A stretch of 64,000 bases of DNA from a virus (Duplodnaviria > Caudoviricetes), in IMG/VR virus record IMGVR_UViG_3300015615_000196, positions 96,001 through 160,000 of that record; one strand, written 5' to 3'. The translations under genes and the position numbers were made by a program. Positions 283 through 7,123 of this stretch are shown here, piece after piece. The notes beneath the pieces are model-generated. The model was not told the DNA's origin. It saw only the letters and a program-made list of their open reading frames with translations, and did no database searches. The first letter of the stretch is position 1. Every line of letters begins with the position of its first letter.

Positions 283-388
283 ACTCCATAATTGCTACCA
301 AGACAAGCAATTAGGAGGTGTTTTGATTTTTAATCATACACGAAATTAAGAATAAAATTATTCAAACCAAAATGTCAAAGAACTATCG

Positions 389-462
389 TCATCCGTAGGG
401 GAATCGAACCCCTATTTACGCAGTGAAAGTGCGTTGTCCTTATTCCGTTAGACGAACGGACG
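389..462 (-). tRNA. tRNA-Glu(TTC)
   Basis: Cloverleaf on minus strand: acceptor CGTCCGT/ACGGATG, anticodon arm ACGCA-CTTTCAC-TGCGT, T-arm AGGGG-TTCGATT-CCCCT. Confidence 0.93.
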
Positions 463-472
463 ATAATTTCTG

Positions 473-545
473 TAGCACGTAGGGGAATCGAACCCCTGTT
501 CCCACATTGAAAGTGTGGTGTCCTTGACCGTTAGACGAACGTGCC
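473..545 (-). tRNA. tRNA-Glu(TTC)
   Basis: Acceptor GGCACGT/ACGTGCT, anticodon arm CCACA-CTTTCAA-TGTGG, canonical T-arm. Confidence 0.95.
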
Positions 546-558
546 ATATATTTTAAAG

Positions 559-644
559 TACCTATGGTGGGACTCGAACCCACACGCCCATTACTGAGCA
601 CCAGATTTTAAGTCTGGCGTGTCTACCAATTCCACCACAAAGGC
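559..644 (-). tRNA. tRNA-Leu(TAA)
   Basis: D-arm GTGGAATTGGTAGACAC, anticodon arm CCAGA-CTTAAAA-TCTGG, long variable arm, T-loop TTCGAGT. Confidence 0.95.
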
Positions 645-677
645 ATGTTGCCTGTTGTGATGTCACATAATCGACAC

Positions 678-863
678 TTATTTTTTGTTGCTTCTGTCAT
701 ACTGTTCCAATTTATGTTTTGCTTCATTGATCAATGTTGTTTGATGCGCAACGTTTATTTCTTTTTGATTTGAACTTTTCTTCGTCAATGCATCCGTCAA
801 TTCTTGTTCGAGAGTTGCAACTCTCTCGACTAACTTCTCTCTTTTTTTATCAATTTTTCCCAT
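678..863 (-). CDS. small coiled-coil hypothetical protein within tRNA operon
   Basis: 61-aa ATG ORF co-oriented with the tRNAs, fills inter-tRNA gap. Confidence 0.6.
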   Translation of the reverse strand: MGKIDKKREKLVERVATLEQELTDALTKKSSNQKEINVAHQTTLINEAKHKLEQYDRSNKK

Positions 864-864
864 T

Positions 865-1020
865 TAATTTTTCTTTTATATCAGCTATCATTTCTTCGAC
901 ATCGAAATCCTCAATCAAGTCCATTTGATCGTAGCCTTCTTTTGAGGTGTACACCACAAAGTCTCCGGCTTTAATCAAACAACCTTCTTCGGTCACTATG
1001 TCTCCGAACAGTTTACTCAT
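865..1020 (-). CDS. small acidic hypothetical protein (51 aa, MSKLFGDIVTEEG...)
   Basis: Read manually: ATG at 1020 directly after tRNA-Ala, TAA at 865-867 abutting next ORF. Confidence 0.5.
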
Positions 1021-1021
1021 G

Positions 1022-1093
1022 TGGAGGTATAGGGAATCGAACCCTAATTTCCTGATTGCAAGTCAGGCGTAATCGCCCTTATACGATACCCCC
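1022..1093 (-). tRNA. tRNA-Ala(TGC)
   Basis: Acceptor GGGGGTA/TACCTCC with G3:U70 alanine identity pair, anticodon arm CCTGA-CTTGCAA-TCAGG. Confidence 0.95.
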
Positions 1094-1423
1094 ATACTTC
1101 TTTCTTCTAATCGAGTCATCCAACTCTTTCAAGAAAGATTCTGGTAATTCTATCTTCCTCTGCTCGAACTCATTCAAAATTTCTTGCTTTGAAAAAAGTC
1201 CTTCGCCAATTCCACTACTCCATTCTTTCACCCACAAACCCCAACCTTTTTTTGAAGTGATTACTCCCTTCACAATGTTTGGGTGTCTTGTCTTCATCGT
1301 CTCTCTGAATTTGAAAACTCCGTTTTCGTAATCATTGAAACAACTCTTCCCATCTACTCCGTTCACATCCAATTCCACATTCACACTCGAACCACAGAAT
1401 GTAATTATTCCTGTTCGATACAT
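1079..1423 (-). CDS. hypothetical protein
   Basis: 114-aa ORF co-oriented with the operon; stop codon lies inside the 5' end of tRNA-Ala. Confidence 0.6.
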   Translation of the reverse strand: MYRTGIITFCGSSVNVELDVNGVDGKSCFNDYENGVFKFRETMKTRHPNIVKGVITSKKGWGLWVKEWSSGIGEGLFSKQEILNEFEQRKIELPESFLKELDDSIRRKKYGGIV

Positions 1424-1520
1424 TCTCAGAAACAGTTCAAACTTTTTGTTGAACTTTTCGGAGAACGGTCTTTTGCGTCCATGCGGTAATTAGTCTTCAT
1501 AACTTAACCCTCATTTTATG

Positions 1521-1602
1521 TAGCCCAAGTAGGAGTCGAACCTACACGCCTTTCGGCACTCGCTTTTGAGACGAGCACGTCTACCAATTCCATCATTGGG
1601 CC
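1521..1602 (-). tRNA. tRNA-Leu(CAA)
   Basis: Acceptor GGCCCAA/TTGGGCT, anticodon arm CTCGT-CTCAAAA-GCGAG, variable arm GCC-GAAA-GGC. Confidence 0.95.
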
Positions 1603-1607
1603 ATATG

Positions 1608-1679
1608 CGGTCTATGCGAGAATCGAACTCGCAGCACCACCGTGACAGGGTGGGATGTTAGCCATTACACCAATAGACC
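1608..1679 (-). tRNA. tRNA-Asp(GTC)
   Basis: Acceptor GGTCTAT/ATAGACC, discriminator G, anticodon arm CCACC-CTGTCAC-GGTGG. Confidence 0.95.
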
Positions 1680-1739
1680 GTAGTAGTATCACTTATATAG
1701 ACGCTTCTCTTTTGAAGAACGATACTGTGCGCCATTGTG

Positions 1740-1811
1740 CAGTCCCTACGGGAATCGAACCCGCTTCTCCGGGGTGACAACCCGGCATACATACCAACGT
1801 ACCCAAGGACT
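1740..1811 (-). tRNA. tRNA-Asp(GTC), atypical D-arm (G8, G14)
   Basis: Acceptor AGTCCTT/AGGGACT, discriminator G, anticodon arm CCGGG-TTGTCAC-CCCGG, T-arm GCGGG-TTCGATT-CCCGT. Confidence 0.85.
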
Positions 1812-1992: not shown

Positions 1993-2061
1993 ATTGAAAC
2001 TGTTGATGACGGTCAACACTAAGCCCCTCAATGCCTCTATGAGGACTGAGCACATTTCAAT
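1993..2061 (-). ncRNA. putative small three-way-junction RNA
   Basis: Closing helix ATTGAAAT/GTTTCAAT enclosing hairpins AGTCCTCA/TGAGGGGCT and TGTTGA/TCAACA; strand assumed from operon. Confidence 0.35.
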
Positions 2062-2067
2062 GTCATT

Positions 2068-2154
2068 GTAACAGCACCGGATGCATTAGACCACTATACG
2101 ACCTACCCCGAAGGGCAGGGTGGGATTCGAACCCACGTCCTCCGGTGCTACTAC
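2068..2154 (-). ncRNA. circularly permuted tRNA-like RNA (YrlA/bacterial Y RNA-like)
   Basis: 5'->3' order: 14-bp terminal stem strand, T-arm GTGGG-TTCGAAT-CCCAC, acceptor-like stem CCTGCCC-TTCG-GGGTAGG closed by a loop, D-arm GTAT-AGTGGTCTA-ATGC, terminal stem partner. Confidence 0.8.
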
Positions 2155-2172
2155 TTCAATATTTCAAAGAAC

Positions 2173-2476: not shown

Positions 2477-2509
2477 AAAACAAAAAACCCGACTTTGTGG
2501 GTCGGGTCT
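2477..2509 (-). terminator. intrinsic terminator (attenuator) of the Leu/Ala/Glu/Asp tRNA operon
   Basis: AGACCCGAC-CCACAAA-GTCGGGTTT followed by TTTGTTTT on minus strand. Confidence 0.88.
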
Positions 2510-2526: not shown

Positions 2527-2646
2527 TTAGTATCCAATATCTTCATCTTCCTCTTTAGACCCAACAATAGCGTCATCCTCCACCATAGCCAACGCTACGA
2601 CAGATTCCATCGCTAAAGTTTCTAAAGATAATATTGAAGTTTTCAT
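2527..2646 (-). CDS. putative attenuator leader peptide MKTSILSLETLAMESVVALAMVEDDAIVGSKEEDEDIGY (39 aa)
   Basis: Translated manually; lies between promoter and terminator; 18/39 residues are L/A/E/D, all four Leu codons are TTA/TTG; GTTGGGTCT (2557-2565) is complementary to the terminator 5' arm. Confidence 0.78.
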   Translation of the reverse strand: MKTSILSLETLAMESVVALAMVEDDAIVGSKEEDEDIGY

Positions 2647-2679: not shown

Positions 2680-2723
2680 CATAAATACGATACAAAGGTA
2701 TAAAAGGTTGCGTTCCCTCCAAA
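2680..2723 (-). promoter_or_regulatory. composite promoter of minus tRNA operon
   Basis: TTTG-N19-TACCTTTG (Bacteroidota primary sigma consensus) overlapping GCAAC-N17-CGTAT and GTATTTAT. Confidence 0.7.
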
Positions 2724-5138: not shown

Positions 5139-5180
5139 TAACCTTTATTTGGAGATTACGTATTTAAGGATATATCTTTG
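5139..5180 (+). promoter_or_regulatory. composite promoter of plus tRNA operon
   Basis: TTTG(5148)-N21-TATCTTTG(5173-5180) overlapping GTAAC-N16-CGTATTTA. Confidence 0.72.
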
Positions 5181-5213
5181 TGACACAAAAGCAGAGAGAA
5201 AAGTAAAAAGACA

Positions 5214-5297
5214 ATGAAAAAGATCGTAAACGTAGTTCCGCAACCCCAACATCAGCCACAAAACCTGTTGCTTGGGGATACTATGATCGTATCTTAA
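5214..5297 (+). CDS. putative attenuator leader peptide MKKIVNVVPQPQHQPQNLLLGDTMIVS (27 aa)
   Basis: Translated manually; run CCG CAA CCC CAA CAT CAG CCA CAA matches downstream Pro/Gln/His tRNAs; alternative 1:2, 2:3 and 3:4 pairings present. Confidence 0.88.
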   Translation: MKKIVNVVPQPQHQPQNLLLGDTMIVS

Positions 5298-5317
5298 CTG
5301 TCGAAAAAGACATTTAG

Positions 5318-5355
5318 AAAACCCCCAAGCGTAAAGTTTGGGGGTTTTTTGTTTT
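5318..5355 (+). terminator. intrinsic terminator (attenuator) of the Pro/His/Gln tRNA operon
   Basis: AAAACCCCCAAGC-GTAAA-GTTTGGGGGTTTT followed by TTGTTTT, 4 nt before first tRNA. Confidence 0.92.
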
Positions 5356-5359
5356 CTAT

Positions 5360-5434
5360 CGGGATGCGATCCATTAGGTGTGGTTACGTGTTTTGGAAAC
5401 ATGGTTATTGCTGGTTCGAGTCCAGTCATCCCGA
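5360..5434 (+). tRNA. tRNA-Pro(TGG), atypical D-arm, A37
   Basis: Acceptor CGGGATG/CATCCCG-A, anticodon arm CGTGT-TTTGGAA-ACATG, T-arm GCTGG-TTCGAGT-CCAGT. Confidence 0.85.
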
Positions 5435-5495
5435 CCCGATGTAGACCGTTCGCACTGCAAAGACTGGTTCGCCAGATGCGTAGAAGTGCAAGTAT

Positions 5496-5569
5496 CGAGA
5501 GTGTGGTGTAATTGGATAAACACACTACAATCGGAATGTAGAGTTACGGTTCGAGTCCGGCACTCTCGA
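5496..5569 (+). tRNA. tRNA-Pro(CGG), apparent 8-bp acceptor and short T-stem
   Basis: CGAGAGTG/CACTCTCG-A, D-stem GTGT/ACAC, anticodon arm CTACA-ATCGGAA-TGTAG. Confidence 0.8.
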
Positions 5570-5618
5570 CAATTTTTCTTTAAAAGTATTTATTGGAAAC
5601 ATTAAACAAGTTTCCGAT

Positions 5619-5966
5619 ATGACAAGAGAAGAAAAACAGGTATACGATAGACGATGGTATGCTGAAAACAAAGACAGGTTAAAAGCCGAAAAAAACAAAA
5701 GAGGACGTGAAACACGGAGAAGAAACAGTAATTATATTACTGAATATTTGAAAAAACATCCTTGTGTTGATTGTGGTGAAAATGATCCAATCGTATTAGA
5801 ATTCGATCACATCGCAAAGAAAACAAAGAGTATTTCAGATATGATTCGTGGTGCATTTTCTCTTGAGACGATTAAAAATGAAATCAAAAAATGCGAAGTT
5901 AGATGTGCTAATTGTCATCGAAAGAAAACAGCAAAGCAATTTAACTGGCATCGTAACAGAGTGTAG
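5619..5966 (+). CDS. HNH endonuclease
   Basis: CVDCGE..IVLEFDH..CEVRCANCHRKKT zinc-finger HNH signature. Confidence 0.88.
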   Translation: MTREEKQVYDRRWYAENKDRLKAEKNKRGRETRRRNSNYITEYLKKHPCVDCGENDPIVLEFDHIAKKTKSISDMIRGAFSLETIKNEIKKCEVRCANCHRKKTAKQFNWHRNRV

Positions 5967-6029
5967 TTCAGTTGGTAGAACGCTACATTTGGGATGTAGA
6001 GGCCGAGAGTTCGAGTCCCTCCACTCTGA
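5957..6029 (+). tRNA. tRNA-Pro(TGG)
   Basis: Acceptor CAGAGTG/CACTCTG-A, anticodon arm CTACA-TTTGGGA-TGTAG. Confidence 0.95.
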
Positions 6030-6031
6030 CT

Positions 6032-6289
6032 ATGAAGTTCTTTGATGTAGTAGAAATTGGTGATAGTGTAATGGATGGAAAAGTTGTTGAGACAATAACG
6101 AACAAAACATCCAACTCTATCGAAGTTACCAGAACGGCTCGTTCGAAAAATGGTGTGGATTGTAAACAGTGGTTTACGATGAAAGATTTTGAAGATTCTT
6201 TTAAACCTTTAAATCAAACACACTATGAACAAGAAAGAGTTAAAATGGAAAACGGAAATCTTGGAAAGAATTCCGAAGATGACCAATGA
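6032..6289 (+). CDS. hypothetical protein
   Basis: ATG directly after tRNA-Pro, 85 aa. Confidence 0.55.
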   Translation: MKFFDVVEIGDSVMDGKVVETITNKTSNSIEVTRTARSKNGVDCKQWFTMKDFEDSFKPLNQTHYEQERVKMENGNLGKNSEDDQ

Positions 6290-6452
6290 GGAAGTACTGG
6301 ATCAGTACTCGTATCTCTGCGGAGGTGATGACTACGATGGTTGCATGACTGATCGTGGACAATGGGAATTCGAAAAGATCACTGACGAATTGAGCAAACG
6401 CTTAATCGCCTGTGGATTTTTGAAGGAACACATTAATGCAGGAATGCATTAA
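6225..6452 (+). CDS. hypothetical protein
   Basis: 75-aa ORF (GGDDYDGCMT), ends before tRNA-His. Confidence 0.6.
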   Translation: MNKKELKWKTEILERIPKMTNEEVLDQYSYLCGGDDYDGCMTDRGQWEFEKITDELSKRLIACGFLKEHINAGMH

Positions 6453-6458
6453 TGAAAT

Positions 6459-6533
6459 GGGTTAGGTAGCATAATTGGTTAATGCCCTTGACTGTGGATC
6501 AAGTGTATGCGGGTTCGAGACCCGTCCTAACCC
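6459..6533 (+). tRNA. tRNA-His(GTG)
   Basis: G-1 and C73, acceptor GGTTAGG/CCTAACC, anticodon arm CTTGA-CTGTGGA-TCAAG. Confidence 0.95.
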
Positions 6534-6552
6534 CTTAACGTACTTTGAAATT

Positions 6553-6774
6553 ATGGCACACAAAAAAACAACCGTACCGAAAGTTGAAGCTAAAGTAGTT
6601 TCGCTTACGATCCTTTGTCCAACATTGAACAAAGAAGTTATCGTTACCAGTGATTATTCTTTTTCAGGATATGAAGCAGAATGTGAACTGTGTGGATCGC
6701 ACGGTGAAGTGAAGGTGTGTATAATGAAATGTGAATGCGGTAAGACGCATGACATTCAACTTAGTTCTTGGTAA
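6553..6774 (+). CDS. small Cys-rich putative zinc-binding protein
   Basis: CP, CELCGSHG, CECGKTH motifs; ATG at 6553. Confidence 0.65.
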   Translation: MAHKKTTVPKVEAKVVSLTILCPTLNKEVIVTSDYSFSGYEAECELCGSHGEVKVCIMKCECGKTHDIQLSSW

Positions 6775-6816
6775 CTAACTTAGTAACTAAGAAATATCGG
6801 ACATGTCCGATAAAAT

Positions 6817-6889
6817 TGTCCTCTGGTGTAATTGGCAACACGCCTGACTTTGAATCAGGAGAGTTCAGGTTCGACCCCTGAGAGGACAA
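6817..6889 (+). tRNA. tRNA-Gln(TTG)
   Basis: Acceptor TGTCCTC/GAGGACA, anticodon arm CCTGA-CTTTGAA-TCAGG. Confidence 0.95.
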
Positions 6890-6890
6890 C

Positions 6891-6962
6891 TGCCGAATAG
6901 TATAATGGCGATTATTTCTGGCTCTGAACCAGAGGATGTGAGTTCGATTCTCACTTCGGTAT
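6891..6962 (+). tRNA. tRNA-Gln(CTG)
   Basis: Acceptor TGCCGAA/TTCGGTA, anticodon arm TCTGG-CTCTGAA-CCAGA. Confidence 0.92.
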
Positions 6963-6968
6963 CTACAT

Positions 6969-7041
6969 GGTGTTTGTGTTGTAGTGGCTAACATACCAAA
7001 CTGTGAATTTGGAGAAGACGGATCGAAACCGTCCTTACACC
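6969..7041 (+). tRNA. tRNA-His(GTG), divergent
   Basis: Anticodon arm CCAAA-CTGTGAA-TTTGG; two U-U mismatches in acceptor; T-loop ATCGAAA. Confidence 0.75.
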
Positions 7042-7049
7042 CACTTGAT

Positions 7050-7122
7050 TGCTGAGTAGTATAATGGTTCATTACTGCCGCCTTTGAAGCGGAGGATGAA
7101 GGTTCGATTCCTTCCTCAGCGA
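7050..7122 (+). tRNA. tRNA-Gln(TTG)
   Basis: Acceptor TGCTGAG/CTCAGCG, anticodon arm CCGC-CTTTGAA-GCGG, T-arm GAAGG-TTCGATT-CCTTC. Confidence 0.9.
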
Positions 7123-7123
7123 C

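Follow-up and report, generated by a model that had tools for sequence, protein, structure and literature searches.

An operon of eight phage tRNA genes for proline, histidine and glutamine is preceded by a short leader open reading frame (ORF) and an intrinsic terminator that together have the anatomy of a ribosome-stalling transcription attenuator. The operon lies in a 64,000-nucleotide stretch (the window; positions 96,001 to 160,000) of virus record IMGVR_UViG_3300015615_000196, and attenuation was proposed for it in an earlier sequence-only reading. That interpretation is now supported: the same geometry, conserved with compensatory changes, stands before all four tRNA operons of the genome and in 21 relatives, and the leader codons follow tRNA genes that have moved from one operon to another. 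The attenuator anatomy is seen directly in the four cassettes, together with its conservation, its covariation and the matching of codons to tRNAs. The leaders very probably act as ribosome-stalling attenuators giving a supply of tRNA on demand; translation of the leader, stalling, pausing, coupling, read-through and the trigger are what we infer from this anatomy.

The leader of the Pro/His/Gln operon

The Pro/His/Gln operon is called operon D here. The elements ahead of its first tRNA gene, in window positions, are as follows.

5140..5180, plus strand: promoter region of operon D, located by sequence inspection, with a predicted start; AACCTTT at 5140, a -33-like TTTG at 5148-5151, the phage late-type motif CGTATTTA at 5159-5166 and a Bacteroidota sigma-A -7 box, TATCTTTG, at 5173-5180
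5214..5297, plus strand: leader peptide ORF of 27 codons in an A-rich context without a Shine-Dalgarno motif; homologous in-frame ORFs occur in more than 30 loci
5238..5261, plus strand: eight control codons for Pro, Gln and His (CCG CAA CCC CAA CAT CAG CCA CAA), overlapping RNA segment 1
5270..5277, plus strand: segment 2, the antiterminator strand GCTTGGGG, which covaries with segment 3
5318..5355, plus strand: intrinsic terminator of 16 pairs (segment 3 at 5323-5330, segment 4 and a U tract); the stem may begin at 5315

The sequence-only reading had named a promoter, a 27-codon ORF with eight consecutive control codons, three alternative pairings, a terminator and eight tRNA genes, and these were borne out one and all. 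Read directly, TTTG is separated by a 21-nucleotide spacer from TATCTTTG, which corresponds to the Bacteroidota sigma-A -7 consensus (PMC9723704). Segment 1 lies at 5244-5255, segment 2 forms 8 Watson-Crick pairs with segment 3 (CCCCAAGC), and the hairpin at 5315/5318-5355 is followed by the first tRNA at 5359/5360. Eight tRNA genes and no more are called by ARAGORN and Rfam, all on the plus strand: Pro (TGG, CGG, TGG), His (GTG, twice) and Gln (TTG, CTG, TTG). On folding, the leader RNA (z = -4.6) adopts the state in which 1:2 and 3:4 are paired.

Runs of eight Pro, Gln and His codons are rare, occurring in 7 of 725,202 six-frame windows of the genome, and the upstream pairing to the 5' arm of this terminator is the strongest among 28 genome terminators scored (-15.8 kcal/mol, with a median of about -6). 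An upstream short ORF, cognate codons before segment 2, a terminator before the first tRNA, a covarying and mutually exclusive 2:3 pairing and a 1:2 hairpin, by which an attenuator can be recognized, are thus all present. Features of a T-box (a stem I with specifier loop, a T-box antiterminator) were not found, as there was no Rfam T-box match at E <= 1. Nor does the element fall into the attenuator families of biosynthesis or synthetase genes (His_leader, trpL, ilvL, thrL, pheM): its best non-tRNA Rfam match is His_leader, at 5246-5354, with 33.7 bits against a cut-off of 49 bits, and the downstream genes are tRNAs.

Four leaders divide the genetic code

The virus record is a complete genome of 362,603 bases with direct terminal repeats, from a T4-like phage with a Gp23-type capsid. 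Its 57 tRNA calls are grouped in four operons, and each operon opens with the same promoter motif, a short leader ORF and a terminator. Operon A carries tRNAs for Ser, Thr, Asn, Ile, Gly, Cys, Phe, Arg, Trp and CUN-reading Leu; operon B for Lys and Tyr; operon C for Asp, Glu, Val, Ala, Met and UUR-reading Leu; and operon D for Pro, His and Gln. The three sister leaders are placed as follows.

C1:61730 (genome position), minus strand: leader of operon A, outside the window
C1:83007 (genome position), minus strand: leader of operon B, outside the window
2682..2709, minus strand: promoter motif of operon C, from sequence
2527..2646, minus strand: leader ORF of operon C, 39 codons, rich in Asp, Glu, Ala, Val and Met, with Leu as TTA/TTG only; antiterminator strand at 2558-2565
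2477..2509, minus strand: terminator of operon C, with its 5' arm at 2501-2508
388..1811, minus strand: part of operon C in the window, with tRNA genes for Asp (two), Leu(CAA), Ala, Leu(TAA) and Glu (two); three Met and three Val genes come next, just outside the window

The four leaders jointly sample all 20 amino acids. The fraction of codons belonging to the classes of the own operon is 0.90, 0.42, 0.65 and 0.32 in the four leaders of the source genome, against background values of 0.48, 0.12, 0.31 and 0.09, and the true assignment of leaders to operons is the best of the 24 possible. The division reaches below the level of the amino acid: Leu is written only as TTA or TTG in leader C and only as CTN in the control region of leader A.

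The promoters of the leaders combine host sigma-A elements with phage late-type elements. AACCTTT-N13-CGTATTTA occurs five times in the genome, four times ahead of the tRNA leaders and once ahead of a GOLLD RNA. This fifth copy of the leader-type motif is followed by about 1 kb of non-coding DNA that holds the GOLLD RNA (159.8 bits) and a tRNA-Gln-like gene (L407:1634-2806; G000 C1:190634-191807, plus strand; G000 is the source genome).

Related phages and the probable host

Related loci were retrieved by pattern scans of viral and metagenome contigs. Relatives of operons A, B and C were sought by promoter and terminator, those of operon D by the codon run; in either case, therefore, the other half of the leader-tRNA match was absent from the query. 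The tRNA regions of 23 related records were taken and, with two near-identical genomes discarded ahead of the statistics, the final set comprises 77 curated leaders from 22 genomes, the source genome counted in. Curation was partly a matter of judgement: four weak intra-operon leader calls were dropped by eye, and five leaders missed by one detection run were included. Capsid identity across the set is 73-92%. A leader is present at every operon whose start fell within the retrieved DNA, and no homologous locus without the ORF or without the 2:3 pairing, such as would have counted against the sequence-only reading, turned up among the relatives. The upstream motifs TAnnTTTG and GTATTTA stand before 69 and 71 of the 77 leaders, respectively, these motifs having been used in part for selection.

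In viral contigs, 33 of 36 matches of the D-leader pattern were genuine. When it was run against one genome per prokaryotic species, none of 20 matches had a downstream tRNA, a result for one pattern only that leaves room for other attenuated bacterial tRNA operons. A search with the 269-amino-acid gene upstream of operon D gave only distant, uninformative loci. An element consisting of the promoter motif, a 15-codon ORF and a terminator, with no downstream tRNA, recurs in other viral contigs (L126, L128-L130, L136, L140, L144, L153, L155).

No cultured phage is a close relative: the nearest capsid proteins among cultured phages are 24-42% identical, and blastn against cultured phages gave isolated tRNA matches only. 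The host is likely, on inference, to belong to the Bacteroidota, and probably to the Cytophagales, because the closest named matches of the phage-encoded ribosomal protein bL12 are Cytophagales proteins and because a Shine-Dalgarno motif is found in none of the 77 leaders. Leader-peptide attenuation has been reported as likely in Flavobacterium (PMC9723704). Membership of the phage in the bS21 phage clade is not supported, bS21 being absent from the genome.

Structure and covariation of the leader RNAs

Among 15 class D leaders, 90.8% of the positions of the 2:3 helix are paired, against 16-58% in slid controls, and 19 double changes were counted where shuffles gave 7.9 (0 of 500 shuffles). 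The variants GCTT:AAGC, GAAC:GTTC, GAAT:ATTC and GAGT:ACTC stand beside a constant GG:CC. The terminator helix 3:4 of these leaders behaves like 2:3 (91.7% paired). Over the whole set, the cognate 2:3 duplex has an energy of -14.5 kcal/mol compared with -8.1 for shuffled sequence (lower in 77/77) and -11.6 with the arm of another leader (67/76).

When the untranslated RNA is folded, the terminator forms in 76 of 77 leaders and the 1:2 protector hairpin is part of the minimum-energy fold in 55 of 77, as it also is at the operon D locus. When ribosome stalls are simulated, about 90% of leaders form 2:3, as long as the stall is no closer than 4-5 codons to segment 2. In most D leaders the codon run ends 9-13 nucleotides before the GGG core.

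Leader codons follow the tRNA genes

The sequence-only reading had suggested scanning upstream of tRNA arrays in related phages for a short ORF plus terminator. Among the 77 leaders of the set, all 75 that could be tested match their own operon best, and 94-100% of the amino-acid classes of an operon are represented in the control region of its leader. The codon-tRNA match is concentrated in the control region and declines past the antiterminator: the share of codons served by tRNAs of the operon is 0.92 before and 0.61 after it for A, 0.61 and 0.13 for B, 0.82 and 0.35 for C, and 0.70 and 0.04 for D. A cognate codon is present for 489 of 526 anticodons, compared with 452.7 +/- 5.8 under synonymous resampling; the count of distinct codons is not above resampling (1105 against 1094 +/- 10).

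Several tRNA genes have changed operon, and the leaders have changed with them. The gene for tRNA-Trp is in operon A in one clade (the source genome, G006 and G007) and in operon C elsewhere, and TGG is found in the control region exactly where tRNA-Trp sits, in 36 of 36 leader cases. CUN-reading Leu tRNAs belong to operon A in five genomes and to operon C in fourteen, and CTN codons follow them in 28 of 29 cases; the Leu codons of leader C are 0 CUN and 28 UUR where the operon is without CUN tRNAs, and 32 CUN and 57 UUR where it has them. In G005 a separate Thr/Arg/Ile operon has its own, fifth leader, and the leader A of that genome is the only one without Arg. On an unrooted capsid tree the Trp, Leu and Thr/Arg/Ile moves are three single events on different branches, which makes the true sample three. 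Operon D of G014 (C1:178629) gave no tRNA-His call, and its control run carries Lys and Gln at the places of His in relatives; this is a possible fourth co-change of leader and tRNA, although His occurs earlier in that leader. Because the Leu move is synonymous and the coverage of isoacceptors is higher than under synonymous resampling, the evidence points to leaders that test tRNA species rather than amino acids.

Proposed mechanism and alternative explanations

In the mechanism that we propose, RNA polymerase would start about 30 nucleotides before the leader ATG, with a ribosome following it. If Pro, Gln and His codons were decoded fast, the ribosome would reach the stop codon and cover segment 2, the terminator would form and the tRNAs would stay off; without leader translation, 1:2 pairing would lead to the same off state. 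A ribosome stalled on a control codon would cover segment 1 instead, so that the emerging segment 3 could pair with segment 2, pre-empting the terminator, and the eight tRNA genes would be transcribed. The new tRNA would relieve the stall, closing a negative feedback loop. What is sensed would be how much charged tRNA is available for particular codons, and the switch would pay off most in an infection during which host tRNAs are cut or degraded. Loss of tRNA is taken to be the most sensible trigger, because it is a condition that more tRNA cures; PMC11464382 documents anticodon nucleases of the host as well as rescue by phage tRNA.

Several observations weigh against this interpretation. On the full-length RNA the terminator exceeds the antiterminator in stability by 10-17 kcal/mol, and the switch must therefore be kinetic and co-transcriptional, as in trp. 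The simulation of stalls is built so that 2:3 is lost as soon as the footprint of the ribosome extends over segment 2, and in leader B of the source genome the 2:3 helix is no more than weak and split (-5 to -7 kcal/mol). A few tRNAs are without a matching codon, for example stray Val, Arg, Cys and Gln tRNAs, the CAT-anticodon tRNAs of operon A and Arg CCT. The genomes are related, so that the counts are not independent and each tRNA move is a single event. Finally, the late-promoter-like motif at 5586 could transcribe six of the eight tRNAs of operon D, bypassing the attenuator.

What would the stalled ribosome report? Within the attenuator reading the signal might instead be amino-acid starvation, that is uncharged tRNA, or an imbalance of the infection stage, with extra tRNA buffering elongation or diluting the stringent response. 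A stalled ribosome cannot distinguish an uncharged from a missing tRNA, as is established for the trp and his leaders, and classical leaders do sense amino acids, so that this variant keeps a real if minor chance. It would not, however, require the isoacceptor coverage above synonymous resampling or a Leu codon family that tracks the isoacceptor of the operon (0 of 28 CUN when the CUN tRNAs are elsewhere); extra tRNA supplies no missing amino acid, and biosynthetic genes were not seen in the operons. A general sensor of translation stress, similar to the upstream ORFs of ermC or TopAI, would open all four operons upon any slowing of ribosomes, codon content being secondary. Leader A, which samples ten amino acids, would indeed respond broadly, and any early stall frees segment 2 in simulation, but four to five leaders with near-disjoint codon sets, which change when tRNAs move, make such a sensor improbable.

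Similarly small is the chance that the leaders, though real, are largely bypassed or vestigial, the tRNAs coming from internal or late promoters or through protein-mediated antitermination while the terminator sets a basal level. The late-type motif at 5586 and those inside operons A and B would allow this, as would promoters bearing both host sigma-A and phage late-type elements; it is at odds with the retention of leader, 2:3 and 3:4, with compensatory changes, at every operon of every near-complete relative over 73-92% capsid identity. That the codon match is a coincidence, with the peptides acting in trans or the C/A-rich run being a site of RNA binding, is hardly credible. The D run is of low complexity and CAACATC is invariant in the alignment; yet the Pro, Gln and His codons vary synonymously, the other three leaders share the layout with unrelated base composition, the peptides are poorly conserved past the antiterminator, and 75 of 75 leaders match their own operon. 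Stalling on codons of the operon's own tRNAs remains our preferred explanation of the leaders.

Genes and other features of the operons

The genes of operon D in the window, with tRNAs called by ARAGORN and Rfam, are listed below; the operon contains further small ORFs besides the HNH-like one. Neither these ORFs nor the motif at 5586 had been named in the sequence-only reading.

5359..5437, plus strand: tRNA-Pro(TGG), low-scoring
5496..5570, plus strand: tRNA-Pro(CGG)
5586..5593, plus strand: internal late-promoter-like motif GTATTTAT ahead of the HNH gene, of putative function; copies of the motif also stand before genes of structural type, portal and sheath among them
5619..5966, plus strand: HNH-like ORF inserted in the operon, a probable homing endonuclease (Pfam HNH, E = 0.0015, below the curated cut-off)
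5957..6030, plus strand: tRNA-Pro(TGG)
6460..6534, plus strand: tRNA-His(GTG)
6817..6890, plus strand: tRNA-Gln(TTG)
6891..6963, plus strand: tRNA-Gln(CTG)
6970..7042, plus strand: tRNA-His(GTG)
7050..7123, plus strand: tRNA-Gln(TTG)

Genome-wide, GTATTTATA stands ahead of portal, sheath and many other genes and is likely the phage late promoter; it is the reverse complement of the T4 late consensus. A 10-bp palindrome at window 6431-6454, immediately before the tRNA-His gene at 6460, is a possible processing site or minus-strand terminator.

Two elements on the minus strand of operon C would come under control of its attenuator: a weak YrlA/Y-RNA-like match (29.7 bits; window 2053-2163) between the terminator and the first tRNA-Asp, and a tRNA-like element with a long insert (window about 1825-1983) upstream of that tRNA. 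The phage genome encodes RNA ligases and Pnkp, and an RNA ligase gene lies together with that of bL12 inside the Lys/Tyr operon (L405:2947-4016, that is G000 C1:80947-82016, minus strand), where both may share its attenuator. The four tRNAs of queuosine type fall into different operons in all genomes, that for Asn into A, that for Tyr into B, that for Asp into C and that for His into D, and the grouping also partly follows the first codon base. A CTA-anticodon tRNA, possibly an amber suppressor, is found repeatedly in the clade at the tail of operon A or beyond it (G003-G013, G019 and G023, for example L316, L328 and L342; G000 C1:299220-299292). In operon A of G007, G008, G011 and G022 a CAT-anticodon tRNA occupies the place of Ile(TAT) in relatives and is probably a lysidine tRNA-Ile2; all A leaders contain ATA, and pairwise scores of the CAT tRNAs gave no clean identification as Ile2.

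Relation to known systems

Multivalent leader-peptide attenuators control amino-acid operons of Escherichia coli such as ilvGMEDA, thr, his, trp, leu and pheA. The phage leaders resemble them in having a short ORF with control codons, 1:2, 2:3 and 3:4 pairings and an intrinsic terminator 45-65 nucleotides past the stop codon (for the pheL leader of pheA, see PMC3082878). They differ in being borne by a phage, in having tRNA genes rather than enzymes as output, in testing up to ten amino acids each, mostly by one to three codons apiece, and in partitioning the whole code among four or five leaders with a match at the level of isoacceptors. Another E. coli leader, pheM, precedes pheST. Like it and the leaders of hisS paralogues in bacilli (PMC2965389), the phage leaders would give feedback, through a leader peptide, to part of the machinery supplying charged tRNA; those leaders control synthetases for one amino acid, whereas the phage leaders control the tRNAs themselves. 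With T-box riboswitches they would share antitermination dependent on tRNA status, but a T-box binds uncharged tRNA directly and needs the tRNA to be present, while a ribosome sensor also responds to an absent tRNA. In cyanobacteria, a trn operon repressed by TrcR is likewise a tRNA array induced under translational stress. Unlike the phage leaders, TrcR is a protein repressor that acts at initiation and is not codon-specific.

Replacement of a host tRNA cut by an anticodon nuclease is exemplified by T5 tRNA-Lys against PARIS (PMC11464382), and PMC10264068 and PMC11555353 treat such replacement by phage tRNAs as counter-defence. The PARIS paper does not mention attenuation, and the phage leaders would add a demand-driven layer of control. 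No published description of trp-operon-style attenuation on tRNA genes was found in a literature coverage that took in few subscription papers, and attenuation is not mentioned in the huge-phage survey.

For decades there has been debate about the reason for which phages carry tRNAs (PMC10264068). A switch that fires only on slow decoding of specific codons would record what the phage expects to lack; this speaks for phage tRNAs as substitutes for depleted or cleaved tRNA rather than as a static compensation of codon usage, and makes the question testable with a 150-nucleotide reporter. With these leaders, leader-peptide attenuation would gain tRNA as an output and the phage as a carrier, both of them new. 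The leaders would also explain the grouping of tRNA arrays in these phages, and could serve as ready-made biosensors for isoacceptor-specific loss of tRNA in Bacteroidota. On balance, we lean towards the view that this clade of giant Bacteroidota phages may possess a complete and evolvable codon-audit system, in which four or five ribosome sensors would cover all 20 amino acids at isoacceptor resolution and release only the block of tRNAs in short supply, as an inducible counter-defence against tRNA-cleaving immunity of the host.

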